Source of the DNA: a virus
Reading direction: 5' to 3' (one strand)
Length of the DNA: 64,000 nucleotides
Virus record (IMG/VR): IMGVR_UViG_3300028920_000001
Coordinates: 1 to 64,000 of that record
Position 1 is the first letter of the stretch. Each line of letters begins with the position of its first letter. The translations under genes were made by a program, and so were the position numbers. A model generated the notes under the pieces. That model was not told the DNA's origin. It saw nothing but the letters and a program-made list of their open reading frames with translations, and ran no database searches. Positions 7,538 to 63,169 of this stretch are shown one piece after another.

Positions 7538-7764
7538 TGAATGTATTTTTCTTCATGATAACGGCTGAAGAATACCTTAAGCATTATTGTAAAGAAAATA
7601 ATATTAATTGGAATAAGCTTACTCGAGCTGAACAATTTATGTTAACTAGAAAAATTCCTTGTACTATTCGTTGTTTTAGAGTGGGTGGACCTGTCGATCT
7701 AGATGAAGATGGGACTTGTCCTGAATGTGGTGCAATTTGGTTAGCTGATGTTATGGAATCATGA
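7537..7764 (+). CDS. Small Cys-containing protein ending in VMES
   Basis: 75 aa, with a CPEC motif and C-terminus LADVMES. ATGA-type overlaps on both sides. Confidence 0.65.
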   Translation: MNVFFFMITAEEYLKHYCKENNINWNKLTRAEQFMLTRKIPCTIRCFRVGGPVDLDEDGTCPECGAIWLADVMES

Positions 7765-7976
7765 TTGTTGACATCCACAGGTGTCATCGGATTCCATGTA
7801 AAAATAAAGTAACTTATTATGTTAAAGTCACCTGGCCTTATCGATTTATGGATAATCAACGTATCATTGGAGTATGTAGCCAGCATAGATACACTGGAAT
7901 ATTTGGTGCATCTAAACATGATATTGAAGAAATTGGTAAGGAAGAAGCTTTTGTTTATGAAATCATGGAATCTTAA
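7761..7976 (+). CDS. Small Cys/His-rich protein ending in IMES
   Basis: 71 aa, C-terminus EAFVYEIMES. The stop is followed directly by the next ATG. Confidence 0.65.
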   Translation: MIVDIHRCHRIPCKNKVTYYVKVTWPYRFMDNQRIIGVCSQHRYTGIFGASKHDIEEIGKEEAFVYEIMES

Positions 7977-8351
7977 ATGAGACGATTTCTTTTACGACGT
8001 GATAAGGATGTAACCGGAATTTCCGGTACCGGAGTGATAGCCGAAGGTGTTATATTTGATGAAAAAGGAAAACCTGGGGAAGGAAAAGTTGTGCTTCATT
8101 GGCGCACATCAACATCTTCAATAGTTATTTATGAAAGTTTGGATGGAATAAAGAAAGTTCATTGTCATAACGAAAATACTAAAATTGTTTGGATAGATTG
8201 TTGTAAAACTTGTATTCATCTACAATGGTATGACGATAAAGGTGGTCAATGTTGGGGAACTTCATGTCCTGTGTATTATGAAGACTCATGTCCTGTGTAT
8301 CAATCTTCAATTCATCCTGAAATAATTGTGAAAACAGTGATGGAATCATAA
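7977..8351 (+). CDS. Small protein with Cys-rich C-terminal half, ending in VMES
   Basis: 124 aa. The N-terminal DVTGISGTGVIAEGVIFDE...VVLHW...VHCH...IVWID resembles a domain common in phage small proteins (recollection). C-terminus KTVMES. Confidence 0.65.
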   Translation: MRRFLLRRDKDVTGISGTGVIAEGVIFDEKGKPGEGKVVLHWRTSTSSIVIYESLDGIKKVHCHNENTKIVWIDCCKTCIHLQWYDDKGGQCWGTSCPVYYEDSCPVYQSSIHPEIIVKTVMES

Positions 8352-8478: not shown

Positions 8479-8814
8479 ATGTCGCACTATTTTAATTCAT
8501 TTGAGGAAATGTGGGATGCCATAATTGATTTTATTTCCCATAATCCAGATGCTGTAATTTTATGTAATGATGATCCGTCTTCAAGAAAAATTGGATATTG
8601 TGCATACGCTTACAATAAAATTAATACATATTGGACGATGGATGTTAAACCATATAATGCTTATATCTGTAAACATTTTAAATCGGATCAAGATGTCAAT
8701 CCGACTGTATTTAATATTCGTTTGATATCAGCGGCAGCACTAAATCAAGGGATAAAACTTGAAAATTTTGATCCTGAGAATTGGCACCTGTTGTCTGATA
8801 TTCATTTAACTTGA
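8479..8814 (+). CDS. Hypothetical protein
   Basis: Track ORF 8470..8814 starts at a TTG. The first ATG is at 8479. Confidence 0.55.
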   Translation: MSHYFNSFEEMWDAIIDFISHNPDAVILCNDDPSSRKIGYCAYAYNKINTYWTMDVKPYNAYICKHFKSDQDVNPTVFNIRLISAAALNQGIKLENFDPENWHLLSDIHLT

Positions 8815-9246
8815 CATAATTTCATTAACTTGACATAATTTGCATTTAGGATGATGCCCTACAAATAAGTCGGCTACAATTTCTTTGCATTCTGGACATG
8901 GATATGAAGTGATTACAAAACCTCCACCACTGACTATGACTTCCAATTCATTCTTATTTTTAATTACCACTACTTTAGATACATCCATTTCATAGTTGAT
9001 TGATAAATCAAGAGTTCTAATTATACGATCATGGATTGTTGGAAATTCCCAGCTTTTGGGTACTATAATATCATTGTTAGGTATGGTGGAAGCTAAATTT
9101 TCTTGAAATTCAACTTGGATTTCCCCGTGTTCATACCAAATTTGCCCTTTTTGGTCTAATCTGTAACCAAATTCATCTAGCATCTTGTAAATTCTATTTA
9201 TTTCTTGATGTGATTGGGTCCAGAGATACTGCATTAGTTTATTCAT
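8806..9246 (-). CDS. Hypothetical protein with C-terminal CPEC...CKLC zinc-ribbon-like motif, ending in IMSS
   Basis: Track ORF 8806..9327. The internal Met at 9246 avoids a 68-nt head-to-head overlap with 9260..9583. Confidence 0.55.
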   Translation of the reverse strand: MNKLMQYLWTQSHQEINRIYKMLDEFGYRLDQKGQIWYEHGEIQVEFQENLASTIPNNDIIVPKSWEFPTIHDRIIRTLDLSINYEMDVSKVVVIKNKNELEVIVSGGGFVITSYPCPECKEIVADLFVGHHPKCKLCQVNEIMSS

Positions 9247-26864: not shown

Positions 26865-27442
26865 TTCCTTTAATTTTAGCTCAAATGTGTGAATGCCCGC
26901 CAGATGGTGTGTGCTTAAATAAAGAACAAAAAGAACAAGTTACCGCTGCAGTGAAAGAGTTTGATGACATCAAGAGCTCCAAAGCAGAAATTGAAGTTGT
27001 AGAACCTATTGTTATTATTCGTGATTGGGAAAATCGAATTTATATTAATGGTGGTGAGAAAAAACCGATCAAACTCAAATTAAAAATTGGTAAAACAATT
27101 GATCGGGATATGGAGATGACTTTGCCGATCGAGGTCGGGTATCGGGAAGAGCCGCCGGACCCGATGTTTAGATTACGAATTCGAGCTCAGGCCGGGTTTT
27201 TAATACCTGAAGTTATTCAGACTATTCAAGGACAACATGAAAATTTCTGGGATGCATCTATTGGTTTTGATTTCTTCCATTTAAGCTGGTTTAATTTCTC
27301 TATTTATGCTGGAGTTAGAAGTGTTGGGGTTGGACCGGGGATCGATGTGACTAAGAATTTCGGATTATATTCATCATTTGCATTTGTATACGAAACTATT
27401 CGAATTTCGAATAGTACAGGTGTTTATTTTAGTTTTAATTAA
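26861..27442 (+). CDS. Hypothetical protein with beta-barrel-like C-terminal half
   Basis: Start overlaps the upstream stop. The N-terminus has Cys10 and Cys12. The C-terminal half has alternating hydrophobic strands (FRLRIRAQAGF, IGFDFFHL, FNFSIYAGV, YSSFAFVY) and ends GVYFSFN. Confidence 0.5.
   Translation: MIPLILAQMCECPPDGVCLNKEQKEQVTAAVKEFDDIKSSKAEIEVVEPIVIIRDWENRIYINGGEKKPIKLKLKIGKTIDRDMEMTLPIEVGYREEPPDPMFRLRIRAQAGFLIPEVIQTIQGQHENFWDASIGFDFFHLSWFNFSIYAGVRSVGVGPGIDVTKNFGLYSSFAFVYETIRISNSTGVYFSFN
27396..27414. repeat. 19-bp perfect palindrome at the convergence of the + structural operon and the - strand LAGLIDADG gene
   Basis: ctattcgaatttcgaatag is followed by tgtttattttagtttt. It could act as a bidirectional terminator or as a protein binding site. 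Confidence 0.5.
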
Positions 27443-28412
27443 TTTTATATTCCATTCCAGTTCCATCTATGTATGGTTTAATTAAATTAATGAATTTTTT
27501 CCCTTCTGTTGAGGAAAACATGAGATAATAATATTTCTTTTTGTTTTTAACGCGATTTTTAACTCTAGGACAACATCCGAATTTGCACAACACAGACTGT
27601 AATAACTTATTTTCATTTAATGAAAAGCCTTCGGTATGAAGGGTTATTCTCTGACGCCCATTTTTTAATTTAGGATTGGATCCATCATCCATAAACCAAT
27701 ATGCTAATGCAATTTCATTTAATTGATTAATCCAGTTCAAATTTACTTGTTTTTTTCCATTTATTTTACATAATTTTGCAATTTGTGGTAATTCTCTAGC
27801 ATTCCATAGTCTGTTCACATAAAATTCAGATTGTGGATTAAAACATGACTTACTTTGTTCAATTGAGAAATTAGCATTTAGCAAATCTCTAATATGTTCA
27901 GAGTATAGAGAATGGATTTTACCTTGTGTATGCTTATAAAAATAAGACCTCCTGTGCTTGATTTTAATAAGTGATGCGTCTCCTAACAAAGTTCCTAATA
28001 TCGCTTGCTTTTGGAAATTGGTTATTTTAGGTGCATTTCTTTGATATTTTAAAGATATTGAGTCATACTGATTTCTTGTTTTTCCTTTCAAAATCTTTCT
28101 TATTTTATACCTAGTTAATCTGGTTTCATCCCAAATTTCTTTTATAGTAAACCCAGATGTATATAAATTTTCAACTAACTCTTTTTCACTAGATAATATG
28201 TTTATACGGGGCCTGATATTTCTGCATTGCACTCCTTTGTTTTTTAAAATTACTGATATTCTACTTTTAGAAATATTGTATTTCTGTGTTAATTCAATTA
28301 TTGTGTTTCCGTGATTGTAATCCTTAACTATTGAGATATCTCTGTCCATATATAAATTATTGATAAATAATTTATTGGTATAGGATGAGATTTTTTCCAC
28401 TTGTAAATTCAT
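27435..28412 (-). CDS. LAGLIDADG-family homing endonuclease (free-standing) with N-terminal HTH repeats
   Basis: Two LAGLIDADG-type motifs: ILGTLLGDASLIK and LAYWFMDDGSNP. It is the only - strand gene between + strand neighbours. Confidence 0.75.
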   Translation of the reverse strand: MNLQVEKISSYTNKLFINNLYMDRDISIVKDYNHGNTIIELTQKYNISKSRISVILKNKGVQCRNIRPRINILSSEKELVENLYTSGFTIKEIWDETRLTRYKIRKILKGKTRNQYDSISLKYQRNAPKITNFQKQAILGTLLGDASLIKIKHRRSYFYKHTQGKIHSLYSEHIRDLLNANFSIEQSKSCFNPQSEFYVNRLWNARELPQIAKLCKINGKKQVNLNWINQLNEIALAYWFMDDGSNPKLKNGRQRITLHTEGFSLNENKLLQSVLCKFGCCPRVKNRVKNKKKYYYLMFSSTEGKKFINLIKPYIDGTGMEYKIN

Positions 28413-31693: not shown

Positions 31694-32569
31694 ATGGTAA
31701 TGAACTTATTATATTTAATTTTAAATATGAGGAGGCTTTCGAAAGTCGAAATAGCTAAAATGACAGACCTATACCGTAATGGACAATCAATTAATAAAAT
31801 ATCAAATTCTTTTTCTATCGACAGATCTACGATTAGATATTGGTTGTCTAAGTACAGTTTATTAAGACCAAAGACTAAATTGAAATTAGATGCTTCTTAT
31901 TTTGAAAATTTAAATAATAAAAATAAATGTTATTGGATCGGTTTTTTATTAGCTGATGGCACAATTGGGTATAGGTATCTTGATACTAAAAATGGGAAAG
32001 TACGAAGACCAAAGCGGGTGAATCTCACTCTTCAATCTAAAGATGAATCACACTTAAAATTATTTAAAGATGAAATTAACTTTGATGGTTCAATCAAACA
32101 ATTGACAAGATTTGATAAGAGATACGGTAAAACACGGCATCACTCTAGTCTTACCATTGTTTCAGTTCCATTTTGTAATTGTTTATTAGCTAAAGGATGG
32201 GATGAATTCAAGAAAGATGGTGATATATCTATTTTAGAACGAATTCCTAGTCATTTGTTGCTTTTTACTATGAGAGGGCTGTTCGATGGAGATGGTGGTT
32301 CCATTGTAGATAAACGAAATCAAATCATGGTTTATTTTACAAATAAACACCTTTCAGTAGTTCGGTTTTTCCAGAATTGGTTGACTCAAAAGTGTGGCCT
32401 TAATAAGACAAATATTTTCCAGAATTCCAAGTCTAAATTGTGTCGTCTTCAATATAGAGGTAATACTCAAGGAACTTCAATTTTGACATATTTGTATTCG
32501 GGGGGAGGACCAATGTTAAGAAGAAAAGATGCTCGACTTGTCTTGGATGTAGATTTTTCTGACATCTAA
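31694..32569 (+). CDS. LAGLIDADG-family homing endonuclease (free-standing)
   Basis: Motifs CYWIGFLLADGTIG and MRGLFDGDGGSI, with an N-terminal HTH (SIDRSTIRYWLSKY). Exact start is uncertain (several Met codons between 31694 and 31727). Confidence 0.75.
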   Translation: MVMNLLYLILNMRRLSKVEIAKMTDLYRNGQSINKISNSFSIDRSTIRYWLSKYSLLRPKTKLKLDASYFENLNNKNKCYWIGFLLADGTIGYRYLDTKNGKVRRPKRVNLTLQSKDESHLKLFKDEINFDGSIKQLTRFDKRYGKTRHHSSLTIVSVPFCNCLLAKGWDEFKKDGDISILERIPSHLLLFTMRGLFDGDGGSIVDKRNQIMVYFTNKHLSVVRFFQNWLTQKCGLNKTNIFQNSKSKLCRLQYRGNTQGTSILTYLYSGGGPMLRRKDARLVLDVDFSDI

Positions 32570-34952: not shown

Positions 34953-35234
34953 ATGCGTTTTGCACATATGAAAACTAAAGATGGTACTCTGGTAGTCGTA
35001 TCCGTATCTAAAGACAAACTTTATATTACTATTTCACCTGAATTAGGAATGCATACTGGGATCACCTTAGATCCAAATGCAATTAAATGGAATACAATGT
35101 GGTTTATTAAAATTATCCGTGGTTTTATTGAAGTTGGAAATATTAAATGTGATATTTTCGATGTAGCTAAAACAGTTTTGACTTTAGCGAAGAAACAGCA
35201 TTACGATGTGTTGTTACCAGTGATGTGTAGTTAA
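34953..35234 (+). CDS. Hypothetical protein
   Basis: 93-aa ORF, last + strand gene before a convergent - strand gene. Confidence 0.5.
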   Translation: MRFAHMKTKDGTLVVVSVSKDKLYITISPELGMHTGITLDPNAIKWNTMWFIKIIRGFIEVGNIKCDIFDVAKTVLTLAKKQHYDVLLPVMCS

Positions 35235-35641
35235 GTCTCCATAACGTCTGAAACTAAGGCAGTTTTAAGAGTGTCGATTATTTTAAGTGAATTTTTAGAT
35301 ATGGTTTCCATTAGTGCTTCCTGTATATCATAATCGTTTTTTATTATTTCAGACAATTGCCAATGAATATTATAATCTTTTTCAAATAAAATAAGGAATA
35401 GACTAAGGAATTTTTCCATATTAACAGGTTTTAATTCATAGCCTTTTCCTTTACACTCTCTGCATTTCACATCATCTAATGAGACTGTCTGATCTAATGT
35501 TCTATAACTTTCGTTGTGTCCTTTTCCATAACAAAAATTGCAGGGGATTGTTATCATCAGTCCAATTTTATCGAAATCTTCGCCAGAACCATAACCTAAT
35601 AGAATATCTTTAATTTCTCTGCGAAGATTTTCATCCATCAT
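35231..35641 (-). CDS. Small protein with DnaJ-type CxxCxGxG zinc-finger pair, ending in VMET
   Basis: CNFCYGKGH and CRECKGKGY motifs, C-terminus LVSDVMET. Confidence 0.6.
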   Translation of the reverse strand: MMDENLRREIKDILLGYGSGEDFDKIGLMITIPCNFCYGKGHNESYRTLDQTVSLDDVKCRECKGKGYELKPVNMEKFLSLFLILFEKDYNIHWQLSEIIKNDYDIQEALMETISKNSLKIIDTLKTALVSDVMET

Positions 35642-38884: not shown

Positions 38885-41731
38885 ATGATGCATCTTCAAC
38901 AGATGGATGATCGTGTCTCGGTTCATAGAGATTGGTTTAAGGACTATGGATTTCATCTGGTTTCAGAAACCGAAAAGGTTAAGAAATTAGTTGATATCTG
39001 CGTCCAACGTGGAGTTTGTTCTCTCGACTGTGAATGTACAGGGGTAGATAATAGAATTTATCCCGATTCCCATTTTGATGATGGTATTAAAAGTCGGCAT
39101 GGCATTCGAACTATAGATAGAATAGTTGGATTGTGCATGTCGTTTGATGGAAGAAATGGTTATTATCTCCCTTTAACTCATGAACCAGATGATTCTCCTA
39201 ATTTACCTTGGGATTCCACTTGGGATGAAATTACTCGACTAATTGAAAATTGCATCATTATCTTCCATAATTCTAAATTTGATTGCGAGTTTTTATATCC
39301 GCCTACTGGTATTAATCAATATGACTTCAATCGATATGAAGATACATTATTTATTTCGAAGATCATAAATCCGCTGAAGACTAACCCGAATGGTCTTAAA
39401 CCTCTAACTAAGATTCATTTTGGGGTTGATATGGTGGAGCTCGATGAGCTTTTTACAGATGAACGAAAAGAACAACTGAAAAAAGAAGGTCGTAGGTATA
39501 ATTTTGCTTTGCTTCATCCTAAGGAGGGTCTCGAGTATGGATGCTCTGATGGGATTTTTACTTATGGGTTGTTATACAAATTAATTGAACGCTTGAGTGA
39601 ACAAGACAAGAAAATTTATAATTTAGAGAAATCTTTTTGCAACGTAGTTCGCAGGATGGAACAAAATCGTATCCATCTTGATATTAAACAAGTTAATTCA
39701 TTATATGAAGAATGCAAAATAGCTATGCGTGAGACCGGTGATGCGGTCAGAACGCTAATTGAAAAGAAAACTGGTAAGACTGGAAGATGGCTAGCCCTGA
39801 ATGTAGGCTCCCCCTCTCAATTATCTACTGCATTTTTCAATGATCAGGAGGGACTCAAACTCAAGCCTACTCCTGAAATGATTAGTGATGCTGATAAAGT
39901 AGGAGATGAGAATAAACAATATTCTACTAATGAAGAAGCTCTAAAATCTCTCAATAAAGCATATGGGGATAAATTTCCGATTATTAGAGCTAAAGCTGAT
40001 GGATCAAAAATCACGAACAGCATGTTTGAAGTAATTTTGGAATATCGTCATTACGAAAAGATGAAAGGCTCTTATATTGAGCCATTGTTCAAGTCTCATG
40101 ACAAATATGGAGACGTTCGACCTTCGTTTAATCAAATAGGAACTGATACAACTCGCTTATCTGGTAAAGCAGATAAGATCGAAAATGGTTATTCAGGAGT
40201 CAATTTTCACGGAATTCCTCGAGATTCTGATGATGATAAACCAGAATTATTTAAACAAATTCGTACCTGCATTGCTCCACGCCCGGGATACGTCATGGTT
40301 AAAATTGACTATTCCGGTGAGGAACTCCGAGTTGTCACCAATTTGTCCGGAGATCGAATTTGGATTAAGTCGTTCCTCTACGAAGATGGAGACGTACATT
40401 CTATCACCACGCGCATTCTTTACGGTAAGCAAGACATCTCTAAAGATGAGCGAAACCGTGGGAAAAGAAGTAACTTCGCGTTTATTTATGGCGGTGGAGC
40501 AGGAGCTATACAGAGTAATGTCGGATGTTCTATTGAGGACGCTCAACGTCATATGAATAATCTTCGGGCAGGCGTGCCTGAATTGATGGGATACGTTGAC
40601 CACCAGAAGCAATTCGCCCGTAAGTATAAATGTATTTATACAGCGTTCGGCCGGCGCATTCCGATTCAACTGGTGGATTCTCCCATCAAAGGATTGAGAC
40701 GGAAGGCAGAACGTCAGGCTATTAATTACACGATTCAAGCTACTTCAGCGGATATTTTGAAATATGCATTTTGTTTTGTCGACAAGAACATTCGTAAACT
40801 TGGCTGGGAAGATCGAGTTAAATATGTACTTACGGTGCATGACGAAATTGTGTTTGAGGTGAAACCTGAATATTTAATGGAAATTGTTCCTAAATTAGAT
40901 GAATGGATGACCTATCCGTGGAAACTTCCTAAAGCTCATGGTCGTGAATGGATCGTCCCGCTTGAAACCGAACCTGGTGTTGATATTCATTGGAGAGCTC
41001 GCTATGACTTTTTTGCTATGACTCGAGGCACGGAAGTCAAACCTGATCAAATTAACGAGGGTAAGTATACCGGCAAATTGAAGAAGGGTCACTATTTTGC
41101 TAACGGTCGAATTTATCAAGAAATTCCTGACTTCTTGAAGTCATATATTAAAGTAGAAGGTGGCCTACCGGAGACTAAACAAATACCCGAAGTTAAACCG
41201 GATGAGTCAAAGCCTGAATCTAAATCTGAGGTTAAAATAGCGGAGAACGTACCTGAGCCTCCGCCAATAACACCTGAACTTAAAGAGGCGTTTAAACAGG
41301 AAGCTCAAAAATGGGGTGAAGAAGTATCTGAAAAAGTAGCTGATATAGAAAATCTTAGTGAGCCACCTAAAGTAGAATCTAAGCCCACAGAATCGGAGGC
41401 CATTTCCACAGAAGTAGATTTAGACGTATCCCAAGAAGAAGGCTTAGGTATTGAAGTTGAAGATGCTGGAGATGAAGATGAAGAAGCAACTAAACCTACG
41501 AATGGTCGAAAACCAATTGGTGAAGATGAACAAATTTTTCGTTTTACTTTTCAGGCCGTGATGTCAGAATTTAATGCTAAAAAATTAAAGGCAATTTTTG
41601 CTTTAGCTGAGGGCGATACTCCGCTTAGGATAGTCGATCCGAAGGGGGTTATTCTTCTTCCGGAGCAAGATGCTCCTCGAGTGGATCCTCAGAAGTTTCA
41701 ATATCTGGCTTCTCTATATGGGCTTGGATAA
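38885..41731 (+). CDS. polA: Family A DNA polymerase with 3'-5' exonuclease domain and long acidic C-terminal extension
   Basis: Exonuclease motifs LDCECTGVD, HNSKFDCEFL and YGCSDGIFT. Polymerase motif A VKIDYSGEELRV, motif B RGKRSNFAFIYGGG and motif C LTVHDEIVFE. About 200 extra C-terminal residues are rich in E/K/P. Confidence 0.9.
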   Translation: MMHLQQMDDRVSVHRDWFKDYGFHLVSETEKVKKLVDICVQRGVCSLDCECTGVDNRIYPDSHFDDGIKSRHGIRTIDRIVGLCMSFDGRNGYYLPLTHEPDDSPNLPWDSTWDEITRLIENCIIIFHNSKFDCEFLYPPTGINQYDFNRYEDTLFISKIINPLKTNPNGLKPLTKIHFGVDMVELDELFTDERKEQLKKEGRRYNFALLHPKEGLEYGCSDGIFTYGLLYKLIERLSEQDKKIYNLEKSFCNVVRRMEQNRIHLDIKQVNSLYEECKIAMRETGDAVRTLIEKKTGKTGRWLALNVGSPSQLSTAFFNDQEGLKLKPTPEMISDADKVGDENKQYSTNEEALKSLNKAYGDKFPIIRAKADGSKITNSMFEVILEYRHYEKMKGSYIEPLFKSHDKYGDVRPSFNQIGTDTTRLSGKADKIENGYSGVNFHGIPRDSDDDKPELFKQIRTCIAPRPGYVMVKIDYSGEELRVVTNLSGDRIWIKSFLYEDGDVHSITTRILYGKQDISKDERNRGKRSNFAFIYGGGAGAIQSNVGCSIEDAQRHMNNLRAGVPELMGYVDHQKQFARKYKCIYTAFGRRIPIQLVDSPIKGLRRKAERQAINYTIQATSADILKYAFCFVDKNIRKLGWEDRVKYVLTVHDEIVFEVKPEYLMEIVPKLDEWMTYPWKLPKAHGREWIVPLETEPGVDIHWRARYDFFAMTRGTEVKPDQINEGKYTGKLKKGHYFANGRIYQEIPDFLKSYIKVEGGLPETKQIPEVKPDESKPESKSEVKIAENVPEPPPITPELKEAFKQEAQKWGEEVSEKVADIENLSEPPKVESKPTESEAISTEVDLDVSQEEGLGIEVEDAGDEDEEATKPTNGRKPIGEDEQIFRFTFQAVMSEFNAKKLKAIFALAEGDTPLRIVDPKGVILLPEQDAPRVDPQKFQYLASLYGLG

Positions 41732-54717: not shown

Positions 54718-55443
54718 TTATTTTTGCATAATACTTTCGACAATCTCGGTATTTTCTAGCCATTGCGCAATATCAGGATGAATTTGATCTTTGTTAGGTA
54801 ACTTAATATTGCCCTTAGGAATTTTGCTAAATTGGAAAAATCGATTATTTTCCCTAAATATCATGGCAGTTTTCTTAGTAATTTTTGCACCTAATAAGGA
54901 TTGAACTTTTCGCCTTCGTTTTAGGAATACTTGTTTTTCATTGTCGGTAAGATCATCAGGTTGAATAAATCCATTCCTGAGTTCCATGAATCTAGCAGTA
55001 AATTTAGCCACACAGTAGGCGTCTGCTTCATCAGATTGCATGGGATCAGGATTCATTTGATCTAATTGCACAAACCGTTGAATATCTTGTTTATCAGCGG
55101 ATCCTTTACCAGTCAAGAATTTCACTGTGGCTGGATCAAACAAGACACAATCTTTGCGTTTTTCGAAAATAGCCTCGAGAGAAAACATCATTAGGCCAAA
55201 ATGGCGCTCAGAATATTCCCCACCACCATAGGCTGGACTTTCCAGTCCAACCAAATCTACTCTGTGCCGTCGAAGTAAATCAGCAACTAATGAACGAAAA
55301 TGAATATAACGAGCTACTGGGACTACCGATTTTAATGTTCCCTCATGTCCAGAAGCAATTAGTTTTCTCTTGCCTTTTAATGTAGAATCATAAATAGCCC
55401 ATCCATAGGATAACAAACTCGGATCTAAACCCAAAGCCTTCAT
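54718..55443 (-). CDS. ruvC: RuvC-like Holliday junction resolvase
   Basis: MKALGLDPSLLSYGWAIYD, VGLESPAYGG and DEADAYCVAKF match RuvC catalytic Asp/Glu contexts. The start could be 55443 or 55455. Confidence 0.75.
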   Translation of the reverse strand: MKALGLDPSLLSYGWAIYDSTLKGKRKLIASGHEGTLKSVVPVARYIHFRSLVADLLRRHRVDLVGLESPAYGGGEYSERHFGLMMFSLEAIFEKRKDCVLFDPATVKFLTGKGSADKQDIQRFVQLDQMNPDPMQSDEADAYCVAKFTARFMELRNGFIQPDDLTDNEKQVFLKRRRKVQSLLGAKITKKTAMIFRENNRFFQFSKIPKGNIKLPNKDQIHPDIAQWLENTEIVESIMQK

Positions 55444-57231
55444 ATGATACTCCATTTAGAACCTGATGATGTATATAAATCATTCATTTATACCGGTGCT
55501 CCGATTAAAATAGGTGAATTTAGCGCTAAGAAATTACCATTTAAGTGTAAATGTGGGTCAATAAAATTAATAAGAATGAATACCATTACTACTGGGAAAA
55601 GTACAACTTGTGGGGAATGTAGTAAAATTAACTTAAATTACGGTACTAAATTCAACGATCTTATTTACATCGGGCCTTCAATTCGAATCCATCCTCAAAG
55701 TGAAAAAAAATTATTATTTAAATGTAAATGTGGTAAATCTAAGTATATTAGGTTCTTTACAGTAGAGAAAGGTAAAGCCAAGAAATGCGGGGACTGCAAT
55801 TTAACTGTTATTAAAAAGGGCGACAAAATAGGTAATTTTTGGTATGCTGGAAATGAAATTACTGAATATCTAGGAACAATTAAAAAATATCCATTTAAAT
55901 GCAAATGTGGGAAGATAGTGTTTCTTAGTCTAAGAAACACTAAGAAAAATCAAACATGTGGTAAGTGTAATGAAATATTATTGAAACACATGGAAAAATA
56001 TCAAACTTTTGTTTATTTAGGTAAAGATATTCATATCGGACCTTGGTCTAAAACAAAATTGCCATTTAAATGTAGATGTGGGGCATTAAAGTATATTTCC
56101 ATCTCATCTATTACATGTGGAGATACTGTATCATGTACTAATTGCTATCAAATAATTAGTACATGGTATAAAAATAATGTACCAACACTTAAAAAATTAA
56201 AATGTCCAATCTCCCCTAGTCAATTTCCGATAGGTGGCCCAATTCCATTAGAAACAATTAAATTTCGTTCTAAGAGTTATACCTTTCTTTGTCCTATTTG
56301 TGATAGTCAATATAATCCAACTTTAAATGAAATTGTAAGAGGAAAGCGATTAACATGTGGCTGCATATGCAATAAAATTTCAGTTCCTAATAGAGAAATA
56401 AAAAACTTTATAGATTCATTAAATTTGAATTCTGAATTGGAATTCAAATTAGACGGCAGATATTTTGACATTAAATCAGGTAACTTGTTGATTGAATTGA
56501 ATGGAATCCGTTGGCATTCCAAAATAAATTCAAGACAACGTGATACTGAAAAATATTCAATAGCTATGGACAATGACTACCAATTATTGTCCATATTTGA
56601 AGATGAATGGAAAAACAAAAAACAGATATTTAAAAACATTATACAACATAATCTTGTACGCAGTGAGTCCATACTCTTACGACCTCAAAAGTGTGAAATT
56701 TTAAAAGTTCAAAATAAAGAAATCAACGACTTTTACGAAAGAACTCATTATATTGGTAAATGTAAAGCTAAAGTTCACTATGCTGTTATTCATGATTCTA
56801 AAATTATAGCTGCCATGTCTTTTGGTAAGCCAACTCGGCCTACCAAAAGATACGATTGGGAAATAATACGAATAGCAACAGATCCAAATTACCATGTTCA
56901 TGGAATCTGGTCTAAACTCTTGAAATTGTTTATTAAAGAATATAAACCAAAGTCCATTGTGTCTTTTTCAGATAATCGTTTGTTTACTGGAAAAGTGTAT
57001 GAAAAATTGGGTTTCACTTATGATGGAGATGTGAAACCTGATTACTACTGGACGTTAGGAAATAAGAGATTCCATAAATCTAATCTCAGGAAAACTAAAG
57101 AAGAAAAATTAACTGGTTTAACTGAAACTCAGTTAAGAGAAGCCCAGGGATATAAGAAAATTTGGGATTTAGGGAAAAAGAGATGGGTCTATCAATTGAT
57201 AGACCCATCTAATTCCAAAGCCCGCACTTAG
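55444..57231 (+). CDS. Large homing-endonuclease-like ORF: 4-5 tandem Zn-ribbon units + Vsr/DUF559-like nuclease core + GNAT-like C-terminal domain
   Basis: Repeated ~58-aa units (KKLPFKCKCGxxKxI...CGxC). Then RYFDIKSGNLLIELNGIRWHS and the C-terminal block IVSFSDNRLFTGKVYEKLGF...PDYYW. It is the only + strand gene in a - strand block. Confidence 0.6.
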   Translation: MILHLEPDDVYKSFIYTGAPIKIGEFSAKKLPFKCKCGSIKLIRMNTITTGKSTTCGECSKINLNYGTKFNDLIYIGPSIRIHPQSEKKLLFKCKCGKSKYIRFFTVEKGKAKKCGDCNLTVIKKGDKIGNFWYAGNEITEYLGTIKKYPFKCKCGKIVFLSLRNTKKNQTCGKCNEILLKHMEKYQTFVYLGKDIHIGPWSKTKLPFKCRCGALKYISISSITCGDTVSCTNCYQIISTWYKNNVPTLKKLKCPISPSQFPIGGPIPLETIKFRSKSYTFLCPICDSQYNPTLNEIVRGKRLTCGCICNKISVPNREIKNFIDSLNLNSELEFKLDGRYFDIKSGNLLIELNGIRWHSKINSRQRDTEKYSIAMDNDYQLLSIFEDEWKNKKQIFKNIIQHNLVRSESILLRPQKCEILKVQNKEINDFYERTHYIGKCKAKVHYAVIHDSKIIAAMSFGKPTRPTKRYDWEIIRIATDPNYHVHGIWSKLLKLFIKEYKPKSIVSFSDNRLFTGKVYEKLGFTYDGDVKPDYYWTLGNKRFHKSNLRKTKEEKLTGLTETQLREAQGYKKIWDLGKKRWVYQLIDPSNSKART

Positions 57232-58115
57232 AGTAAATCGTCGTAGCCCTGCTGAAGTTTCGGTGCTTCAGCAGAAGCTTCGCCTGAACCTAACTGATTA
57301 GAACTGCCGCCACCACTGATGCGTTGTTGGAGTTGCTCTGCTGTGAGCTCGAACCCAAGCTCTTTTTCGACATGCTTCCAAGCTCGCAATCCTTCTTCCA
57401 AAATCCACTGGCGGATTTCCGGCTTGATGCCTTCTTTGCGTGCCCAAGCCGCAGTCATTCCATTTTCGAAATTCTGCTTTTGATATTTTGAATCACCATC
57501 CAAGGTGACCTTGATATCAATTACCTTGAAATCGTTTTTGCGTGCACTAGCATAAGTGCTCTCGAATTTCTTATATTTCTTGGCACTCATCCGATAGAGT
57601 TCGATGGTAGTATATTTCTTTTGATTCAGCAGTTCCAGATCTGCTTCACCATCCTCATCGATCGGGTATTTCAGAATGACACAGCCGACATGTTGCTGTG
57701 CATCATCTAATTTCTTAGTGCTGCAGCAAACGGCTCGATGAGTAATGGTCTTCCCATCTCGCTTGCTCAGGCAGCGAATGGTTCCAAATCCATCACCGAA
57801 GTGGGTGTAAGCTGCTGCGAATTTAGGGCTTTCGATGTTAAGCCGATCAACCTCAGTTAGATCCTTAACGTCTTTACCCATTCTTTCGGCTAACTTGACA
57901 TCAACCTTCTTAACAATATCTGCGATTTCTTCATCGGTAAGAGGGCTGCCTTTTTCCTTAGCCTTGTGCTTTAGGACTGCATCAACATGTTTCTTGAAAG
58001 AGATGACGGAAATTCGGCTAAGTTCGCCCGGCCGGCTTTGGGTGAATCGCTCATAACCACTAACCTGAACGACCTTGCCATCATCAAACCCGAACTCCAT
58101 TACGTCGCTAGACAT
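57228..58115 (-). CDS. gp32-like single-stranded DNA-binding protein
   Basis: Strong AAGGAGG 5 nt upstream. The order of blocks (GELSRISVISFKK; IRCLSKRDGKTITHRAVCCS; GCVILKYPIDEDGE; IELYRMSAKKYKKF; acidic tail ending YDDLL) parallels T4 gp32 as I recall it. Confidence 0.5.
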   Translation of the reverse strand: MSSDVMEFGFDDGKVVQVSGYERFTQSRPGELSRISVISFKKHVDAVLKHKAKEKGSPLTDEEIADIVKKVDVKLAERMGKDVKDLTEVDRLNIESPKFAAAYTHFGDGFGTIRCLSKRDGKTITHRAVCCSTKKLDDAQQHVGCVILKYPIDEDGEADLELLNQKKYTTIELYRMSAKKYKKFESTYASARKNDFKVIDIKVTLDGDSKYQKQNFENGMTAAWARKEGIKPEIRQWILEEGLRAWKHVEKELGFELTAEQLQQRISGGGSSNQLGSGEASAEAPKLQQGYDDLL

Positions 58116-58194: not shown

Positions 58195-58959
58195 TCACTT
58201 TAACAGGTCTTCGTAAGATATGCCTTCAGTAGATTCGGAGGTCTTTGTTTCAGGATTGGGACTATCATTAGGAGATTGGGACTCTTGATTAAAAAAATCT
58301 GCTATAGCATTAGCATGGGAGCCACTTAATGGCTCTGGTAAATCATCCGGTCTTTTATTTGGATCTAATATTTCTTTAGGGTCAATCCTATTTCTATTAA
58401 CTGCTGGAGGCATTCCGTGACTAAGTCGGCCCTGTTCGTCAGCTGAGCCTGAAGAATATCCGCCATCACCTCCAAATTGGCTACTTCGGTCATCTTTTAC
58501 TAATTGACGTTGAAAACGAATATCTCCATTAGTTTTCTGAAGGTCATCATACTTGAGTTTGACTATTTTAGCGGTTTCTTGAATATCTAAGAGTTCAACC
58601 TTGAGTTTAACGATAGTTTCAGCCTCATTTTTTAACATAGAGGCTGCGACCGCTTTTTTAATACCCTCTGATGGTTGCTGACGAACTATAGTATCATCAG
58701 CTAATTTTTCTTGCATTTTGAGATCTAAGTCAAGTTCGGATTGTTTGACTTCAATTCTTAAATCTCGTTCTCGTTTCTTAATTTTTTGAAGATAATACTG
58801 AACTCGATTGAGATAACTTCGACACTGAGCTATAGATTTCTGGAGATAAATAAATCCGTATTGAGGTTGAGTCGGATCTTCTACTAATTCAATTTCATAT
58901 CCAGCAATTTCATTTAATATCTGGTCTAATTGTTCTTTAGAAAACACCTCTTCGGTCAT
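58195..58959 (-). CDS. Coiled-coil protein with acidic tail ending YEDLLK
   Basis: 254-aa ORF with heptad-rich N-terminal two thirds and a Gly/Ser/Pro-rich tail. Confidence 0.55.
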   Translation of the reverse strand: MTEEVFSKEQLDQILNEIAGYEIELVEDPTQPQYGFIYLQKSIAQCRSYLNRVQYYLQKIKKRERDLRIEVKQSELDLDLKMQEKLADDTIVRQQPSEGIKKAVAASMLKNEAETIVKLKVELLDIQETAKIVKLKYDDLQKTNGDIRFQRQLVKDDRSSQFGGDGGYSSGSADEQGRLSHGMPPAVNRNRIDPKEILDPNKRPDDLPEPLSGSHANAIADFFNQESQSPNDSPNPETKTSESTEGISYEDLLK

Positions 58960-59414: not shown

Positions 59415-59813
59415 TCAACTGTTCATCACTTTATGGACTGTATAATTCTTTTTAAGATTAGTAATCGTATTATGTTCATGAACGATCCAAACGATACCTA
59501 ACCAGCCCCAACACATTAAACAAAGATAAAAGGGTTTGCCTATATAATTATTTATATAAGATTCCATAATTGATGAATCTAATCTGATATAGATACTAAC
59601 ATAAATTAAGATAGCTACACCGAAATAAATTGAGCTAATAATACTCCAAGTCCAAATATTAGTGAAAAACACGGTTGTAAAAGATACGGTAAATGGAATT
59701 GCCATCCATGCGGTATAACAACTAAATTCAGCTTTGGCTACTTTAATTTCATACTGAGATTTAATTTTCTCAATATCTGTTTGATTTGGTTTAACCAGAC
59801 CTGAACTACTCAT
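59415..59813 (-). CDS. Multi-TM membrane protein, ending in VMNS
   Basis: 132 aa with three or four hydrophobic segments. Confidence 0.55.
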   Translation of the reverse strand: MSSSGLVKPNQTDIEKIKSQYEIKVAKAEFSCYTAWMAIPFTVSFTTVFFTNIWTWSIISSIYFGVAILIYVSIYIRLDSSIMESYINNYIGKPFYLCLMCWGWLGIVWIVHEHNTITNLKKNYTVHKVMNS

Positions 59814-59814
59814 G

Positions 59815-60021
59815 TCAGTCTTCCATAATCATAGTAACAAATGCTTCTTTTAAATAAATTTTATATAATTTGGGTGAATCTGCTTCTCGACACCAAGGGC
59901 AAATTTCATCCAACGGAATAAGATCACCATCCAAAGCACACGGTTTACCACAACGTTGACATCCAATTACTCCACTAGCAATGGAAATTGGTCTGGCATG
60001 TTGAGGATCATAATGTAACAT
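59815..60021 (-). CDS. Small zinc-ribbon protein ending in IMED
   Basis: CQRCGKPC...CPWC motifs, C-terminus EAFVTMIMED. Confidence 0.6.
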   Translation of the reverse strand: MLHYDPQHARPISIASGVIGCQRCGKPCALDGDLIPLDEICPWCREADSPKLYKIYLKEAFVTMIMED

Positions 60022-60561
60022 TCAAGATTCCATGATTTCAGCTACAAATGACTCTTTTTTCAGTCTAGAAATTCTATGGTGCAATATTATGAGCCAAGGA
60101 AATGATACTAACCAAGCAACACAGGCTAACATGATGAACGTGTATTCTGGGAGTTTTTTAATGATTGCAATTTTAGATCGGAAAGATTGATTTATTCTAG
60201 TAATTCGAAAGATAAATGAAAAACTCCACGCTATTCCTATTACACAAATAATTGGCGTTATCCAAAGACTGGGGTTTGTTTTTACCATAAAGAAATGATT
60301 GATGATTGGAGTTGCCATTGATCCTACGGTAGCTGCGACAGGAGTCATCCACATTCGAGAAAATGATCTATAAATCCGTTGAAATTTTAAATCTTCCAAC
60401 ATCTGTGCTGGAAAAGAACGGTTAAGAATCTGAACCAAATTTTGCATTTGATTCGTAAATTCAGTACATGATACTCCCATACTTTTAAGTGCCTTATTAT
60501 ATTGCTTCGTTAAGAGTTTTTGATTTTTTAGATAGTCTTGAATGATTTTTTCTTGGTTCAT
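60022..60561 (-). CDS. Membrane protein ending in IMES
   Basis: 179 aa with several hydrophobic segments, C-terminus ESFVAEIMES. Confidence 0.6.
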   Translation of the reverse strand: MNQEKIIQDYLKNQKLLTKQYNKALKSMGVSCTEFTNQMQNLVQILNRSFPAQMLEDLKFQRIYRSFSRMWMTPVAATVGSMATPIINHFFMVKTNPSLWITPIICVIGIAWSFSFIFRITRINQSFRSKIAIIKKLPEYTFIMLACVAWLVSFPWLIILHHRISRLKKESFVAEIMES

Positions 60562-61007
60562 ACTGAAGAAGTCCAGGTATTAGGAATTGGATGATGTTCA
60601 ATTTGAATGCCTGCTGCTTTTGCTGCTTCGAAAATTCGTTCATCTCGATAAAACTCACCATAAACAACTCGTTTGACTCCCGCATTACTTAACATTTTAA
60701 AGCATAACCAACAGGGAGAAGCCGTAACATATAAAGTTGAATTTCGAAGTCGGGTCCCATTTGCTGCCGCTTGAGCAATAGCATTAGCTTCAGCATGAAT
60801 GGTTCGAACACAATGACCATCTTCCATCATATGACCAACTTCATCACAATGTGGAAGTCCCTTGATGCTGCCATTATATCCTGTACTTAAAATGGATTTG
60901 TTTTCTCCGATAATTACACAACCTACTTGTTTTCGATCACAGGTCCCGCGTTCAGCCACCACAGTGGCAATCTTCATGAAATAGTCGTCCCAGCTAGCTC
61001 TTGACAT
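60558..61007 (-). CDS. dCMP deaminase
   Basis: HAEANAI and SPCWLCFKML give the zinc-binding HAE...PCxxC signature. The size and ATVVAERGTCDRKQVGCVI context fit deoxycytidylate deaminases. Confidence 0.85.
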   Translation of the reverse strand: MSRASWDDYFMKIATVVAERGTCDRKQVGCVIIGENKSILSTGYNGSIKGLPHCDEVGHMMEDGHCVRTIHAEANAIAQAAANGTRLRNSTLYVTASPCWLCFKMLSNAGVKRVVYGEFYRDERIFEAAKAAGIQIEHHPIPNTWTSSV

Positions 61008-61015
61008 AGATTAGA

Positions 61016-61201
61016 TTACATTTCCATGATGAAATTAACGATATATGTTTGCCAGTATTCAATGGCTTCTGGAATGGAAAAAGCAGGAGGGCCTTCATGA
61101 TAGCATTCTTCATTAAGACATCCGACGAGAAAGAAGTGCCTTCGATGCCAGACATCACATTTTTGCCCACAGATAGGACAAGGTCCTAAATTTGTTTTCA
61201 T
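61016..61201 (-). CDS. Small zinc-ribbon protein ending in IMEM
   Basis: CPICGQKC...C..EC motifs, 61 aa. Confidence 0.55.
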   Translation of the reverse strand: MKTNLGPCPICGQKCDVWHRRHFFLVGCLNEECYHEGPPAFSIPEAIEYWQTYIVNFIMEM

Positions 61202-61725
61202 GACACCATAACGCTAGTTACTATTCGTTCTTTTCGATTAGCTCTTCTCACTTTTAGATTCCATAATTTTTTGGATTGAGGATGACATGTACATTTTGTG
61301 ACTACAAAGAAATTATCTTCACCAGGGCCGATGGCAATGATTTTACCAATTTCTACTGGCTTATTATGGATATGAATAAATAACTCTTTATGTTTTTTAA
61401 TGATACTAACTAAAATAATTGTCCAAATTGCAGTTAATCCAATTCTTAAATATAGACTGCCTGGCTCAGAAGGAAAAACATAAGGCACCCATTTAGCAAA
61501 ACTCGGTGGTGCCCATCTATAAGTAGCAAGATAAATATAAAGCAAAATCCAAAATCGTGACCACCAAATCTTACGACTCAGAGGTCGTTTTTTCTCCCAT
61601 TCTAATGTTTTATCAAGTGACCAAAATAATGGTTTGAAGATAATACCTAGTACTTTAAACAGAAGTTTCAGGAAACCCATATCTAAAAGACGTGTTAAGA
61701 TAGGGTCTCGTTTGCTAACATTCAT
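61198..61725 (-). CDS. Membrane protein, ending in VMVS
   Basis: 175 aa with three or more hydrophobic segments. Confidence 0.55.
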   Translation of the reverse strand: MNVSKRDPILTRLLDMGFLKLLFKVLGIIFKPLFWSLDKTLEWEKKRPLSRKIWWSRFWILLYIYLATYRWAPPSFAKWVPYVFPSEPGSLYLRIGLTAIWTIILVSIIKKHKELFIHIHNKPVEIGKIIAIGPGEDNFFVVTKCTCHPQSKKLWNLKVRRANRKERIVTSVMVS

Positions 61726-62765
61726 CGTTCATTTTGGCAAATTAGAAAGTCGCCGCCACAATGATCATAGCAACTTTGCCAAATTTCACTGGGCATTTCA
61801 TGCTTATCTTGACAGATTTTTCGACACTTCCATAATTTATCCTGGCAGGTAGGTTCCCAAGGAACTTGGTCCATATCCCAAGCTAATCCGACTTCCCAAA
61901 TTTCATTTACAGGGCGATATTGGCTAACAAATCGTTCTTTTCTTCCATCAGTATACCAAACTGCCAGAATCCCTTTTTCTCCGTCTTTTCCTCGTTGAAT
62001 GCGTGTTTTGTGGTCTGTTCGCCATTTATTGGTTTTGCGGAATTTCTTTTTATACGGCTCGGTACCATTGCTGATCCAACGAGTTTTCTTAATTGGTTTC
62101 TTGATTTGAACGTTTCGACTATACAAAACCACACGTAACTTACTTAAATCTTCAGTGACTTCATAAGTTTCGGCATGTAAATAAACTGAAGCTGGATATG
62201 GATTCTTAAAAACTAAATCAAGTTCAGGATAACTAACAGTTGCATCAAACCCTCGTTTGATATAAGTCGATGGTCTCGAATGAGAAGTTCGCTGCACAAT
62301 TTCCATTCCTGACATTAATGCTGCAGCATGGATTGTAGAACTTACCTGACAAGTTCCACCACCGTATTCTTCTTTAAATTCACCGAGATAAATTATGATA
62401 GAAGTCATATACCCGAATTCTTCTGTTCGGGGACCTACTGTTTTATTATAAGAAAATGAATCACCAGGATGAATTGGGATCCATTCTAAATTTGCTACAT
62501 TAGTCTTAATATTATGAGCTCGATTTTCATATCGGGAGGTTTTATATTTACCTACATGCTGGTAAATAGTTTCATATTCTCCCACCACATGATACTTATC
62601 ATATGATTCTGGTGATTTTATTTCAGGAAAAGTAATTTCCGGCCATTTCTGAAGAACTAATAGCTGTGGCTGTGGCTGTGGCTGTGGTTCAGTTTTACAA
62701 GCTGGGATTAGATAAGAGATCGTAATTCCGATAAAGACTGAGGTGAGAATTCTGATCAAATTCAT
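61722..62765 (-). CDS. VanW-domain lipoprotein with (PQ)n linker and Cys-rich C-terminus
   Basis: The N-terminus ISYLIPACK is a possible lipobox. GDSFSYNKTVGPRTEEFGY...GGGTCQVSSTIHAAALMSGMEIVQRTSHSRP...GFDATV matches the VanW core (GGGiCQvSTTLy.A...aGL....R..Hs). Confidence 0.65.
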   Translation of the reverse strand: MNLIRILTSVFIGITISYLIPACKTEPQPQPQPQLLVLQKWPEITFPEIKSPESYDKYHVVGEYETIYQHVGKYKTSRYENRAHNIKTNVANLEWIPIHPGDSFSYNKTVGPRTEEFGYMTSIIIYLGEFKEEYGGGTCQVSSTIHAAALMSGMEIVQRTSHSRPSTYIKRGFDATVSYPELDLVFKNPYPASVYLHAETYEVTEDLSKLRVVLYSRNVQIKKPIKKTRWISNGTEPYKKKFRKTNKWRTDHKTRIQRGKDGEKGILAVWYTDGRKERFVSQYRPVNEIWEVGLAWDMDQVPWEPTCQDKLWKCRKICQDKHEMPSEIWQSCYDHCGGDFLICQNER

Positions 62766-63169
62766 TAGCTCTCCATCACTTCAGCTATTCCAGCTAAAAG
62801 AACTAAATTGTCGATTTGGCTCTTATACTGAAAAATGTACACATAGGCGCTTCGGCTACCTTGTTGACCCGTCTCAACAGCAACAAACCAAAATCGGCTA
62901 CAAGTAAGATGCTTATCCTTAATGTCTGCAATTACACCTTCAAAGTTACCTTTTTTAAGCATATTTTTAACTGAGACAACACCATTCTTTTCCCAATCTG
63001 TTGAACCGGCAAAGAAATAGTAAATACAATTAAGTTCAAGAGTTTCTGTGGATAGTTTCCAACGATCTGGCTCCCAATACCGACAAAAATTCCAGGGCAC
63101 TTGATTATAAAATCGCTGCTGAGGGACTTTCTTTTTCCGTTTAGGAGCAGGATTCCAGGGCCAGTTCAT
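62765..63169 (-). CDS. Hypothetical protein ending in VMES
   Basis: 134 aa, C-terminus GIAEVMES, with Ser encoded by AGC. Confidence 0.6.
   Translation of the reverse strand: MNWPWNPAPKRKKKVPQQRFYNQVPWNFCRYWEPDRWKLSTETLELNCIYYFFAGSTDWEKNGVVSVKNMLKKGNFEGVIADIKDKHLTCSRFWFVAVETGQQGSRSAYVYIFQYKSQIDNLVLLAGIAEVMES

Follow-up and report, generated by a model that had tools for sequence, protein, structure and literature searches.

Why do small and mutually dissimilar genes of one large virus close on nearly the same few residues? The question arises in a 64,000-nucleotide stretch of DNA (positions 1 to 64,000 of IMG/VR record IMGVR_UViG_3300028920_000001; hereafter the window), which corresponds to bases 10-64009 of the 428,825-bp metagenomic contig k141_1146627 (ENA ERZ27252253). 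A first-pass annotation had reported a cluster of [VI]-M-E-S-type C-termini between 59,415 and 63,169, and the six minus-strand open reading frames (ORFs) concerned were recovered with exactly the endings claimed (KVMNS, MIMED, EIMES, FIMEM, SVMVS, and EVMES). About 70 kb of the phage's own 429-kb genome was examined here, together with loci from related contigs. The tail is, with good probability, a modular C-terminal tag that a clade of phages of 130-440 kb attaches to otherwise unrelated small accessory proteins. The comparison shows that the tag stays in place while the genes that carry it are replaced between phages, that its carriers are mutually unrelated, and that its register is exact.

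The motif and its register

ORFs were called by a simple greedy procedure that takes the longest non-overlapping frames, which yielded 74 in the window. A Val-Met or Ile-Met pair stands exactly at positions -4 and -3 in 11 of them, against 0.15 expected from the frequency of this dipeptide in the same window proteome (0.00197 per position; binomial p = 6.6e-18). Within 15 residues of any C-terminus in this set, no further [VI]M occurs. The lack of such an excess had been named beforehand as a possible refutation, and the excess is present. A six-frame scan added two small plus-strand ORFs ending at 7764 (...WLADVMES) and 7976 (...FVYEIMES), both also called by the gene caller of the public contig, and brought the count to 13 of 76. 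About one gene in six is a carrier, and the carriers lie in four regions (7.5-9.2 kb, 35 kb, 54.7 kb, and 59.4-63.2 kb), where the earlier claim had been of at least two; three more follow close beyond the window's end. The control, 42 unrelated phage loci, gave the tail on 2 of 1069 ORFs, and 96 chance-seeded loci gave it on 8 of 966.

The full motif is longer than first described and reads hydrophobic(-8)-V(-7)-x-x-[V/I](-4)-M(-3)-E(-2)-S(-1)-COOH, as in the example KKESFVAEIMES. Position statistics were drawn from 75 and later 147 pooled tails, in which Val or Ile at -4 and Met at -3 are fixed by the definition of the search. Position -8 is mostly Ile, Val, Leu, or Phe; position -7 is Val in 71-76% and otherwise mainly Ile or Leu; positions -6 and -5 are free, with Glu favoured at -5; position -2 is Glu in 59-63%; and position -1 is Ser in 78-87% and otherwise a small residue. 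Across 422 ORFs of clade loci, [VI]M falls 80 times at -4, once at -5, and never at -6. A recurrent variant with His in place of Met at -3 (...EVHES) occurs ten times in tail-rich relatives; the search for it also matched one unrelated ending in the window, ...DIHLT. The spacing of positions -8, -7, -4, and -3 (i, i+1, i+4, i+5) would gather them along a single face of a short amphipathic helix. The motif occurs at the C-terminus exclusively. An internal SSIMES at residues 80-85 of the protein encoded at 59415..59813 is not conserved in its orthologue and is therefore probably due to chance.

Selection acts on the peptide, with six of the eight tail positions constrained. The first-pass annotation had argued as much from 62765..63169, which encodes Glu-Ser by GAG-AGC where the other genes use GAA-TCN; that codon difference is correct, and the pooled tails bear the argument out. 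For the last Ser, TCN stands 54 times and AGY 11 times, and all six Ser codons are in use; seven codons, all those for Val and Ile, occur at -4; Val at -7 is spread over all four of its codons; and the tail is followed by TGA, TAA, or TAG. The ATG for Met at -3 is the sole invariant DNA element, and the tail persists across relatives whose GC content ranges from 0.35 to 0.63. The next start on the same strand lies within 15 nt in 44 of 97 tail genes and farther away in 45 (in 34 of these by more than 60 nt), and eight have no downstream gene in their locus. No gene lies within 100 nt downstream of 59415..59813. Convergent pairs in which both genes are tailed occur at 35231/35234 in the window and at 10435/10440 in locus L066 of a relative. 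An excess of TCA-TGA endings arises from ATGA start/stop overlaps in tightly packed arrays; with such overlaps excluded, tail and non-tail genes use the stops alike in the window and in most relatives. Stop-codon recoding was rejected, since all three stops follow the tail and conserved genes of a 436-kb relative are intact under the standard code.

Carriers, clade, and turnover

Tail frequency depends on protein size: 22-29% of ORFs below 200 amino acids (aa) carry it, 7% of those of 200-400 aa, and none of the 30 of 400 aa or more. The carriers comprise ORFans, zinc ribbons, small membrane proteins, a protein with an Acb5 domain, and one with a weak Lar-like match, in keeping with the claim that the tail marks a subset of small accessory proteins. 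The accompanying claim that the interleaved recognisable enzymes lack it holds for the dCMP deaminase (60558..61007, ...TWTSSV) and the VanW protein (61722..62765, ...CQNER); one recognisable enzyme elsewhere, a RuvC-like nuclease (54718..55455), is tailed. Zinc-ribbon-like proteins account for at least one fifth of the 75-protein pooled set. A transmembrane (TM) segment was scored in 7 of these 75 (one of them doubtful) and in three of the six carriers of the 59-63 kb cluster. In three membrane carriers (60022..60561, 59415..59813, and 2779..3138 of L087) the tail follows a basic stretch past the last TM segment; by the positive-inside rule, this arrangement would leave the tail in the cytoplasm.

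Once the last 10-12 residues are trimmed, BLASTP at E < 1e-3 groups 97 tail proteins into 93 clusters. In carriers with a known domain (Acb5, Lar-like, RuvC), the tail lies outside it: the Acb5 domain of 7977..8351 spans residues 1-74, and the Lar-like match of 61016..61201 spans residues 4-50 of 61. Pfam and PHROGs searches of the window carriers returned only Acb5, the weak Lar-like match, and a sub-threshold DnaJ-type zinc finger, and ten larger carriers from relatives had no match in either database. When 1.84 billion representatives were searched with a profile of the 60022..60561 family, no match turned up outside its own 50% cluster.

The extension and tail of 7977..8351 recur only in the close relative P0001, and Acb5 family members beyond the closest relatives end without either. 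(The database protein of another relative, P0002, ends in ...LSLIHISEPTRPY, presumably a translated sequencing-adapter remnant at a contig end and not a real C-terminus.) The RuvC-like nuclease aligns with five orthologues until ...QWLENTE, and the extension that follows is found in none of the five; this enzyme gained its tail as an extension.

Among deposited phage genomes no close relative was found; the best DNA polymerase match, LR745208.1, is 32% identical and has no tail in 50 kb. Orthologues of the window's DNA polymerase with 55-60% identity lie on IMG/VR contigs of 36-436 kb (GC 0.39-0.63) that share a syntenic replication module of helicase, DnaB-like helicase, variable slot, primase zinc finger, DnaJ, and polymerase. 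IMG/VR was also scanned for DNA encoding V-x-x-[I/V]-M-E-S-stop. Most matches were isolated and due to chance, and one contig, IMGVR_UViG_3300032782_000001 (436 kb, GC about 0.48), matched repeatedly; both synteny and its DNA polymerase (58% identity) place it in the same clade. Its locus L087 has 22 tailed ORFs out of 33 within 11 kb, and more arrays occur in L115, L160, L244, and L253. Arrays were also seen in L291, L294, L282, and L283 and, on other contigs, in L078, L093, and L102/L155. A stricter 16-base pattern gave 11 viral stretches: two clade contigs account for seven, and one more (L121) is a genuine tail. Bacterial and archaeal genomes (596 Gb) gave two matches to it, neither at the end of an ORF. 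Loci fetched by homology, which are free of the motif-search bias, carry the tail on 3 of 26 to 3 of 34 ORFs (L171, L172, L173, and L175) and on 1 of 40 (L043); L170, L174, L176, and L061 have none. The tag is therefore specific to this clade and unevenly used within it. As baits, VanW found nothing in viral contigs, and dCMP deaminase found only unrelated phages, which served as negative controls.

The 436-kb contig has a stop-codon preference of its own. In the absence of an ATGA overlap, its tail genes end in TGA in 19 of 23 cases and its other small ORFs in 40 of 96 (p = 4e-4), counted over loci L066, L087, L115, L160, L172, L181, L182, L208, L244, and L253. This bias was not seen in the window or in other relatives.

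Hypervariability, which the first-pass annotation had suggested checking, is evident in the replication module. In the slot between the DnaB-like helicase and the primase, the small genes of the window (35231..35641), L171, L172, L173/L178, and L175 differ and are not homologous, and they end in the same tail. Tail genes of the 59-63 kb cluster are also gained and lost among close relatives: L056 is without the zinc-ribbon gene 61016..61201, and another has an extra, untagged 129-aa gene inserted. Cluster 1 (which includes 7537..7764 and 7761..7976) is missing from the syntenic position in a relative of 46% identity.

Free loss of the tail from orthologues, named in advance as refuting, was not seen, and orthologues of 77-92% identity keep it. 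Positions -7, -4, -3, -2, and -1 are retained in orthologues while -8, -6, and -5 vary. Three orthologues of 60022..60561 (77-84% identity) keep Val at -7 and IMES and change at -8 (F/L), -6 (A/T), and -5 (E/D). EVMES is kept in the orthologues of 62765..63169 in P0020 (92% identity) and L056, and the L060 orthologues of 59415..59813 and 59815..60021 end in FTIKEVMDS and FVSKIMGD. Truncation has left the L056 orthologue of 61198..61725 with 74 aa and no tail.

Table 1. Tail-bearing genes of the window, with their last eight residues.
Position	Strand	Length (aa)	Protein	Tail	Remarks
7537..7764	+	75	Zinc-ribbon protein	WLADVMES	Cluster 1
7761..7976	+	71	Cys/His protein	FVYEIMES	Cluster 1
7977..8351	+	124	Acb5 (PF26761) domain, Cys-rich extension	IVKTVMES	
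8806..9246	-	146	Zinc-ribbon protein	QVNEIMSS	
34953..35234	+	93	Protein	VLLPVMCS	Convergent with next gene, stops overlap in TTAA
35231..35641	-	136	DnaJ-type CXXCXGXG zinc finger (below threshold)	LVSDVMET	
54718..55455	-	245	RuvC-like nuclease	IVESIMQK	
59415..59813	-	132	Membrane protein	TVHKVMNS	Tail codons 59418..59441; stop TGA
59815..60021	-	68	Cys4 zinc-ribbon protein	FVTMIMED	
60022..60561	-	179	ORFan membrane protein	FVAEIMES	Last TM segment, basic stretch, then tail
61016..61201	-	61	Zinc-ribbon protein, weak Lar-like match	IVNFIMEM	
61198..61725	-	175	Membrane protein, C-terminal soluble part	IVTSVMVS	
62765..63169	-	134	Soluble ORFan	GIAEVMES	Glu-Ser codons GAG-AGC

Possible functions of the tail

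The first-pass annotation had offered no mechanism. In the one proposed here, a single shared receptor on the cytoplasmic side would be the docking site for the amphipathic helix and its free carboxylate. The constancy of the tag over a GC range of 0.35-0.63 makes it probable that the phage itself encodes the receptor or that some universally conserved machine fills this role. Docking may hand the carrier over to an AAA+ unfoldase or protease, and the tail would then act as a timer or degron for early accessory proteins. The strict C-terminal register and the membrane carriers are compatible with such a handover, which we put forward tentatively as the purpose of the tail. Recruitment to some other hub is a doubtful option, and prohead loading or tethering, as by the T4 capsid targeting sequence (CTS), an unlikely one.

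A candidate reader of the tag is encoded in the tail-rich 436-kb relative. At L066:5015-6520 (-) lies the gene for a 501-aa single-ring classic AAA ATPase, whose ATPase domain resembles VAT/Cdc48 D2 (E = 2.5e-48) and whose N-domain of about 220 aa is novel; a fragment of the same protein lies at one edge of L093 (14..367), with two genes' distance to tail-bearing ORFs. In both tail-bearing relatives, L066 and L093, the ATPase adjoins a collagen-repeat protein. The phage DnaJ (37762..38847, minus strand) is full-length, with J domain, CXXCXGXG zinc finger, and C-terminal domain; it adjoins the DNA polymerase and keeps this position in 9 of 9 relatives. As a discriminating receptor it was rejected, being present in all nine whether the sampled loci have tails or not. 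We give somewhat less than even credence to the broader idea that the clade runs its own addressing system, in which perhaps 10-20% of the proteome, small and fast-evolving accessory or anti-defence proteins in nearly every case, would bear an 8-residue zip code that one phage receptor reads for scheduled destruction or routing to a phage structure.

Several points weigh against a common tag and its proposed reader. The greedy ORF calling is crude, so that the denominators contain some spurious ORFs, and several tail-rich loci were found by motif search, which biases their densities upward. Clade loci L170, L174, L176, and L061, sampled over 20 kb, hold no tails. AlphaFold2 models of 62765..63169 and 60022..60561, with a mean predicted local distance difference test score of 46 and 47, are too low in confidence to judge whether the tail is free or packed. 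A search for the receptor among the window proteins gave no PDZ, TPR, or protease candidate, and the candidate Cdc48/VAT-like ATPase comes from loci of relatives, L066 and L093. Finally, Glu at -2 and Ser at -1 are unlike the known non-polar bacterial C-degrons of the LAA type.

The ssrA/ClpXP-type degron shares with the tail a free C-terminus in fixed register (the 80/1/0 count given above) and a hydrophobic residue at -3, a small residue at -1, and transferability to soluble and membrane substrates. It differs in its non-polar last three residues (LAA or VAA), where Glu and Ser mostly stand here; moreover, four further upstream positions are constrained in the tail, which is gene-encoded and not added by tmRNA. 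No protease gene was found in the window, nor any tRNA or tmRNA, and hence no phage ssrA tag for comparison. In the MIT domain-MIM system of Vps4, small proteins present a C-terminal amphipathic helix to the N-domain of a classic AAA ATPase, and the ATPase of L066 and L093 is likewise of the classic AAA type with an N-domain, a novel one; there is no sequence similarity, and the likeness would be one of analogy. A PDZ ligand was rejected, since it needs a hydrophobic last residue and the tail has mostly Ser.

Replisome hubs offer another parallel, in that clamp-binding motifs and the acidic tip of SSB are C-terminal peptides by which unrelated proteins plug into one hub. The phage itself has two more tips of this sort, the end of its DNA polymerase and the Y[DE]DLL ending of two adjacent proteins. 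The VMES tail is unlike either and sits mostly on ORFans, zinc ribbons, and membrane proteins, not on replication enzymes. The bacterial beta-clamp-binding motif (QL[SD]LF or QLxLxL-like) was rejected because its pattern is missing from the tail and the polymerases carry a separate LFGLG-type end. The window's DNA polymerase (38885..41731, plus strand) ends in QYLASLYGLG and its clade (L170-L178) in ...[SEK]-L-F-G-L-G, which is clamp-binding-peptide-like and distinct from the VMES tail; RuvC orthologues in relatives show a similar end, Y-L-E-S-L-E-E.

An alternative to the receptor-mediated timer is that the tail is a virion address label. By binding to the portal, the prohead protease, the prohead core, or the capsid interior, it would ensure that small anti-defence proteins enter the virion and are injected together with the DNA. 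The T4 internal proteins are highly diverse defence proteins with the CTS alone in common (PMC3012670), and the C-terminal loading peptides of encapsulin cargo bind HK97-fold shells (PMC8346489). The genomic pattern is the same here: a terminal peptide of about ten residues is the sole conserved part of diverse small proteins in hypervariable loci, and it is amphipathic with a [hydrophobic]-x-E element. The CTS differs in being N-terminal, removed by the prohead protease, and confined to soluble cargo, whereas the tail is strictly C-terminal, extends to membrane proteins and a nuclease, and occurs on far more genes. Encapsulin loading peptides are likewise short and C-terminal and dock diverse cargo, but their cargo genes are few and lie next to the shell gene, while no capsid-like gene adjoins the tail clusters among the window proteins; their consensus, of glycine, serine, and hydrophobic residues, is also different.

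Further points favour such a label. All carriers are small, the Acb5-domain protein and the weak Lar-like match among them, and a constant, host-independent tag fits a phage structural receptor. The sequence [V/I]-M-E followed by Ser resembles the [L/I]-x-E cleavage context of T4-type prohead proteases, and the tailed RuvC-like nuclease brings to mind the association of T4 endonuclease VII with the portal. Against these stand the three of six cluster carriers (about 8-9% overall) with TM segments, which are unlikely as capsid cargo, and the very large number of carriers: the window alone has 13 in its 64 kb, and a single array has 22. The tails showed no link to a structural gene or protease, and cleavage after Glu would take off a single residue. 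Taken together, packaging into the virion seems improbable, if still worth considering.

The effect could also be co-translational. A nascent ...V-x-x-[VI]-M-E-S with the stop codon in the A site might modulate termination or ribosome release and act as a global switch for accessory genes and the neighbours coupled to them. The exact distance to the stop and the many carriers in overlapping, ATGA-coupled arrays fit this idea, and the last residues of a nascent chain are known to affect termination. However, the use of all three stops means that neither release factor is specifically required, stop usage outside ATGA overlaps follows that of non-tail genes in the window and most relatives, and the amphipathic spacing suggests a docking helix. 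Known arrest peptides, moreover, act in short leader ORFs and are not known to act on about 17% of a proteome. We consider a co-translational role very unlikely.

Common descent would make the carriers diverged paralogues of one small-protein family in which the C-terminal helix is the best conserved part. Some traces of kinship exist: 59415..59813 and 60022..60561 match at E = 0.004, four BLAST clusters have two members, and L087 repeatedly contains a Cys/His family with ...EE[YW]IVxEVMxS, to which 7761..7976 of the window is similar. Yet the trimmed proteins remain in 93 clusters, and among the carriers are zinc ribbons and multi-TM proteins as well as an Acb5 domain, a RuvC fold, and soluble ORFans. 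With the five RuvC-like orthologues lacking the extension and the Acb5 members outside close relatives lacking the tail, shared ancestry is highly improbable.

Scarcely credible, finally, is a signal in DNA or RNA, either ATGGA(A/G) as a Shine-Dalgarno-like or re-initiation element for a coupled gene or a microhomology for cassette recombination: several junctions do read ...ATGGAATCTTGAATG or TCATGA with overlapping or adjacent starts, and TCA-TGA is the commonest ending, but the many tails with a distant start or no downstream gene and the convergent pairs speak against coupling, the codon choice at -4 and -1 leaves only ATG invariant, the spread of Val(-7) codons gives no sign of homogenisation, and the hydrophobic -7 and -8 and the exact reading frame would go unexplained. 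Nucleotide-level signals and simple paralogy are essentially excluded.

Full-text searches of the literature, both for the motif and for C-termini common to proteins of jumbo or huge phages, turned up no earlier description of such a tag, and a comparative review of jumbo phages does not mention the motif (PMC7824862). Terminal tags on diverse proteins are already known; what is new is the motif itself, the clade that has it, and its place at the C-terminus of as many as two thirds of the genes in an array, and there is a substantial chance that it amounts to a new addressing system. Huge phages encode hundreds of small ORFans that lack homologues and an assignable function, for which a shared tag is a handle that gives a functional class from sequence alone. 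The tag also predicts one receptor, which could be fished with a 10-residue peptide. If a degron or timer is confirmed, it would reveal the way in which a very large phage times its accessory proteins; a packaging signal would match the T4 CTS at the opposite terminus and could be put to use in loading cargo into capsids; and an addressing system would provide a new viral targeting signal-receptor pair and a way to pick out the accessory proteome of huge phages by sequence. The combination of a conserved tag with a freely replaced gene body is a clear case of modular evolution in viral accessory genes.

Other features of the window

Two adjacent, dissimilar minus-strand genes (57228..58115 and 58195..58959) both end in Y-[D/E]-D-L-L (...QQGYDDLL and ...ISYEDLLK). 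The motif follows a Gly/Ser/Pro-rich low-complexity linker, a layout that resembles the acidic/hydrophobic tip of SSB. Neither protein has a Pfam or PDB match, and Y-x-[DS]-L-[LI] is kept in nearly all relatives (L043, L047-L055) down to 42% identity. Directly after the first gene stands a strong intrinsic-terminator-like hairpin with a 13-bp stem (57181..57210, minus strand). It suggests that a single long transcription unit on the minus strand takes in the tail cluster, RuvB, VanW, dCMP deaminase, and both Y[DE]DLL proteins. A promoter and terminator scan gave this one strong terminator and otherwise nothing specific.

The window also holds two LAGLIDADG-type homing endonuclease genes (27435..28412, minus strand; 31694..32569, plus strand) and two large paralogues on the plus strand (5654..7537 and 55444..57231). 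The LAGLIDADG-type genes lie in the helicase region; the large paralogues match HNH/homing-endonuclease and Mom-like PHROGs, and each tail cluster has one of these two at its border. Within the VanW gene, a GCTGTG tandem repeat at 62660..62685 encodes (PQ)n near the N-terminus (EPQPQPQPQL); in L056, a close relative, the stretch is shorter (TEQQPLVL), and the repeat thus varies in length.

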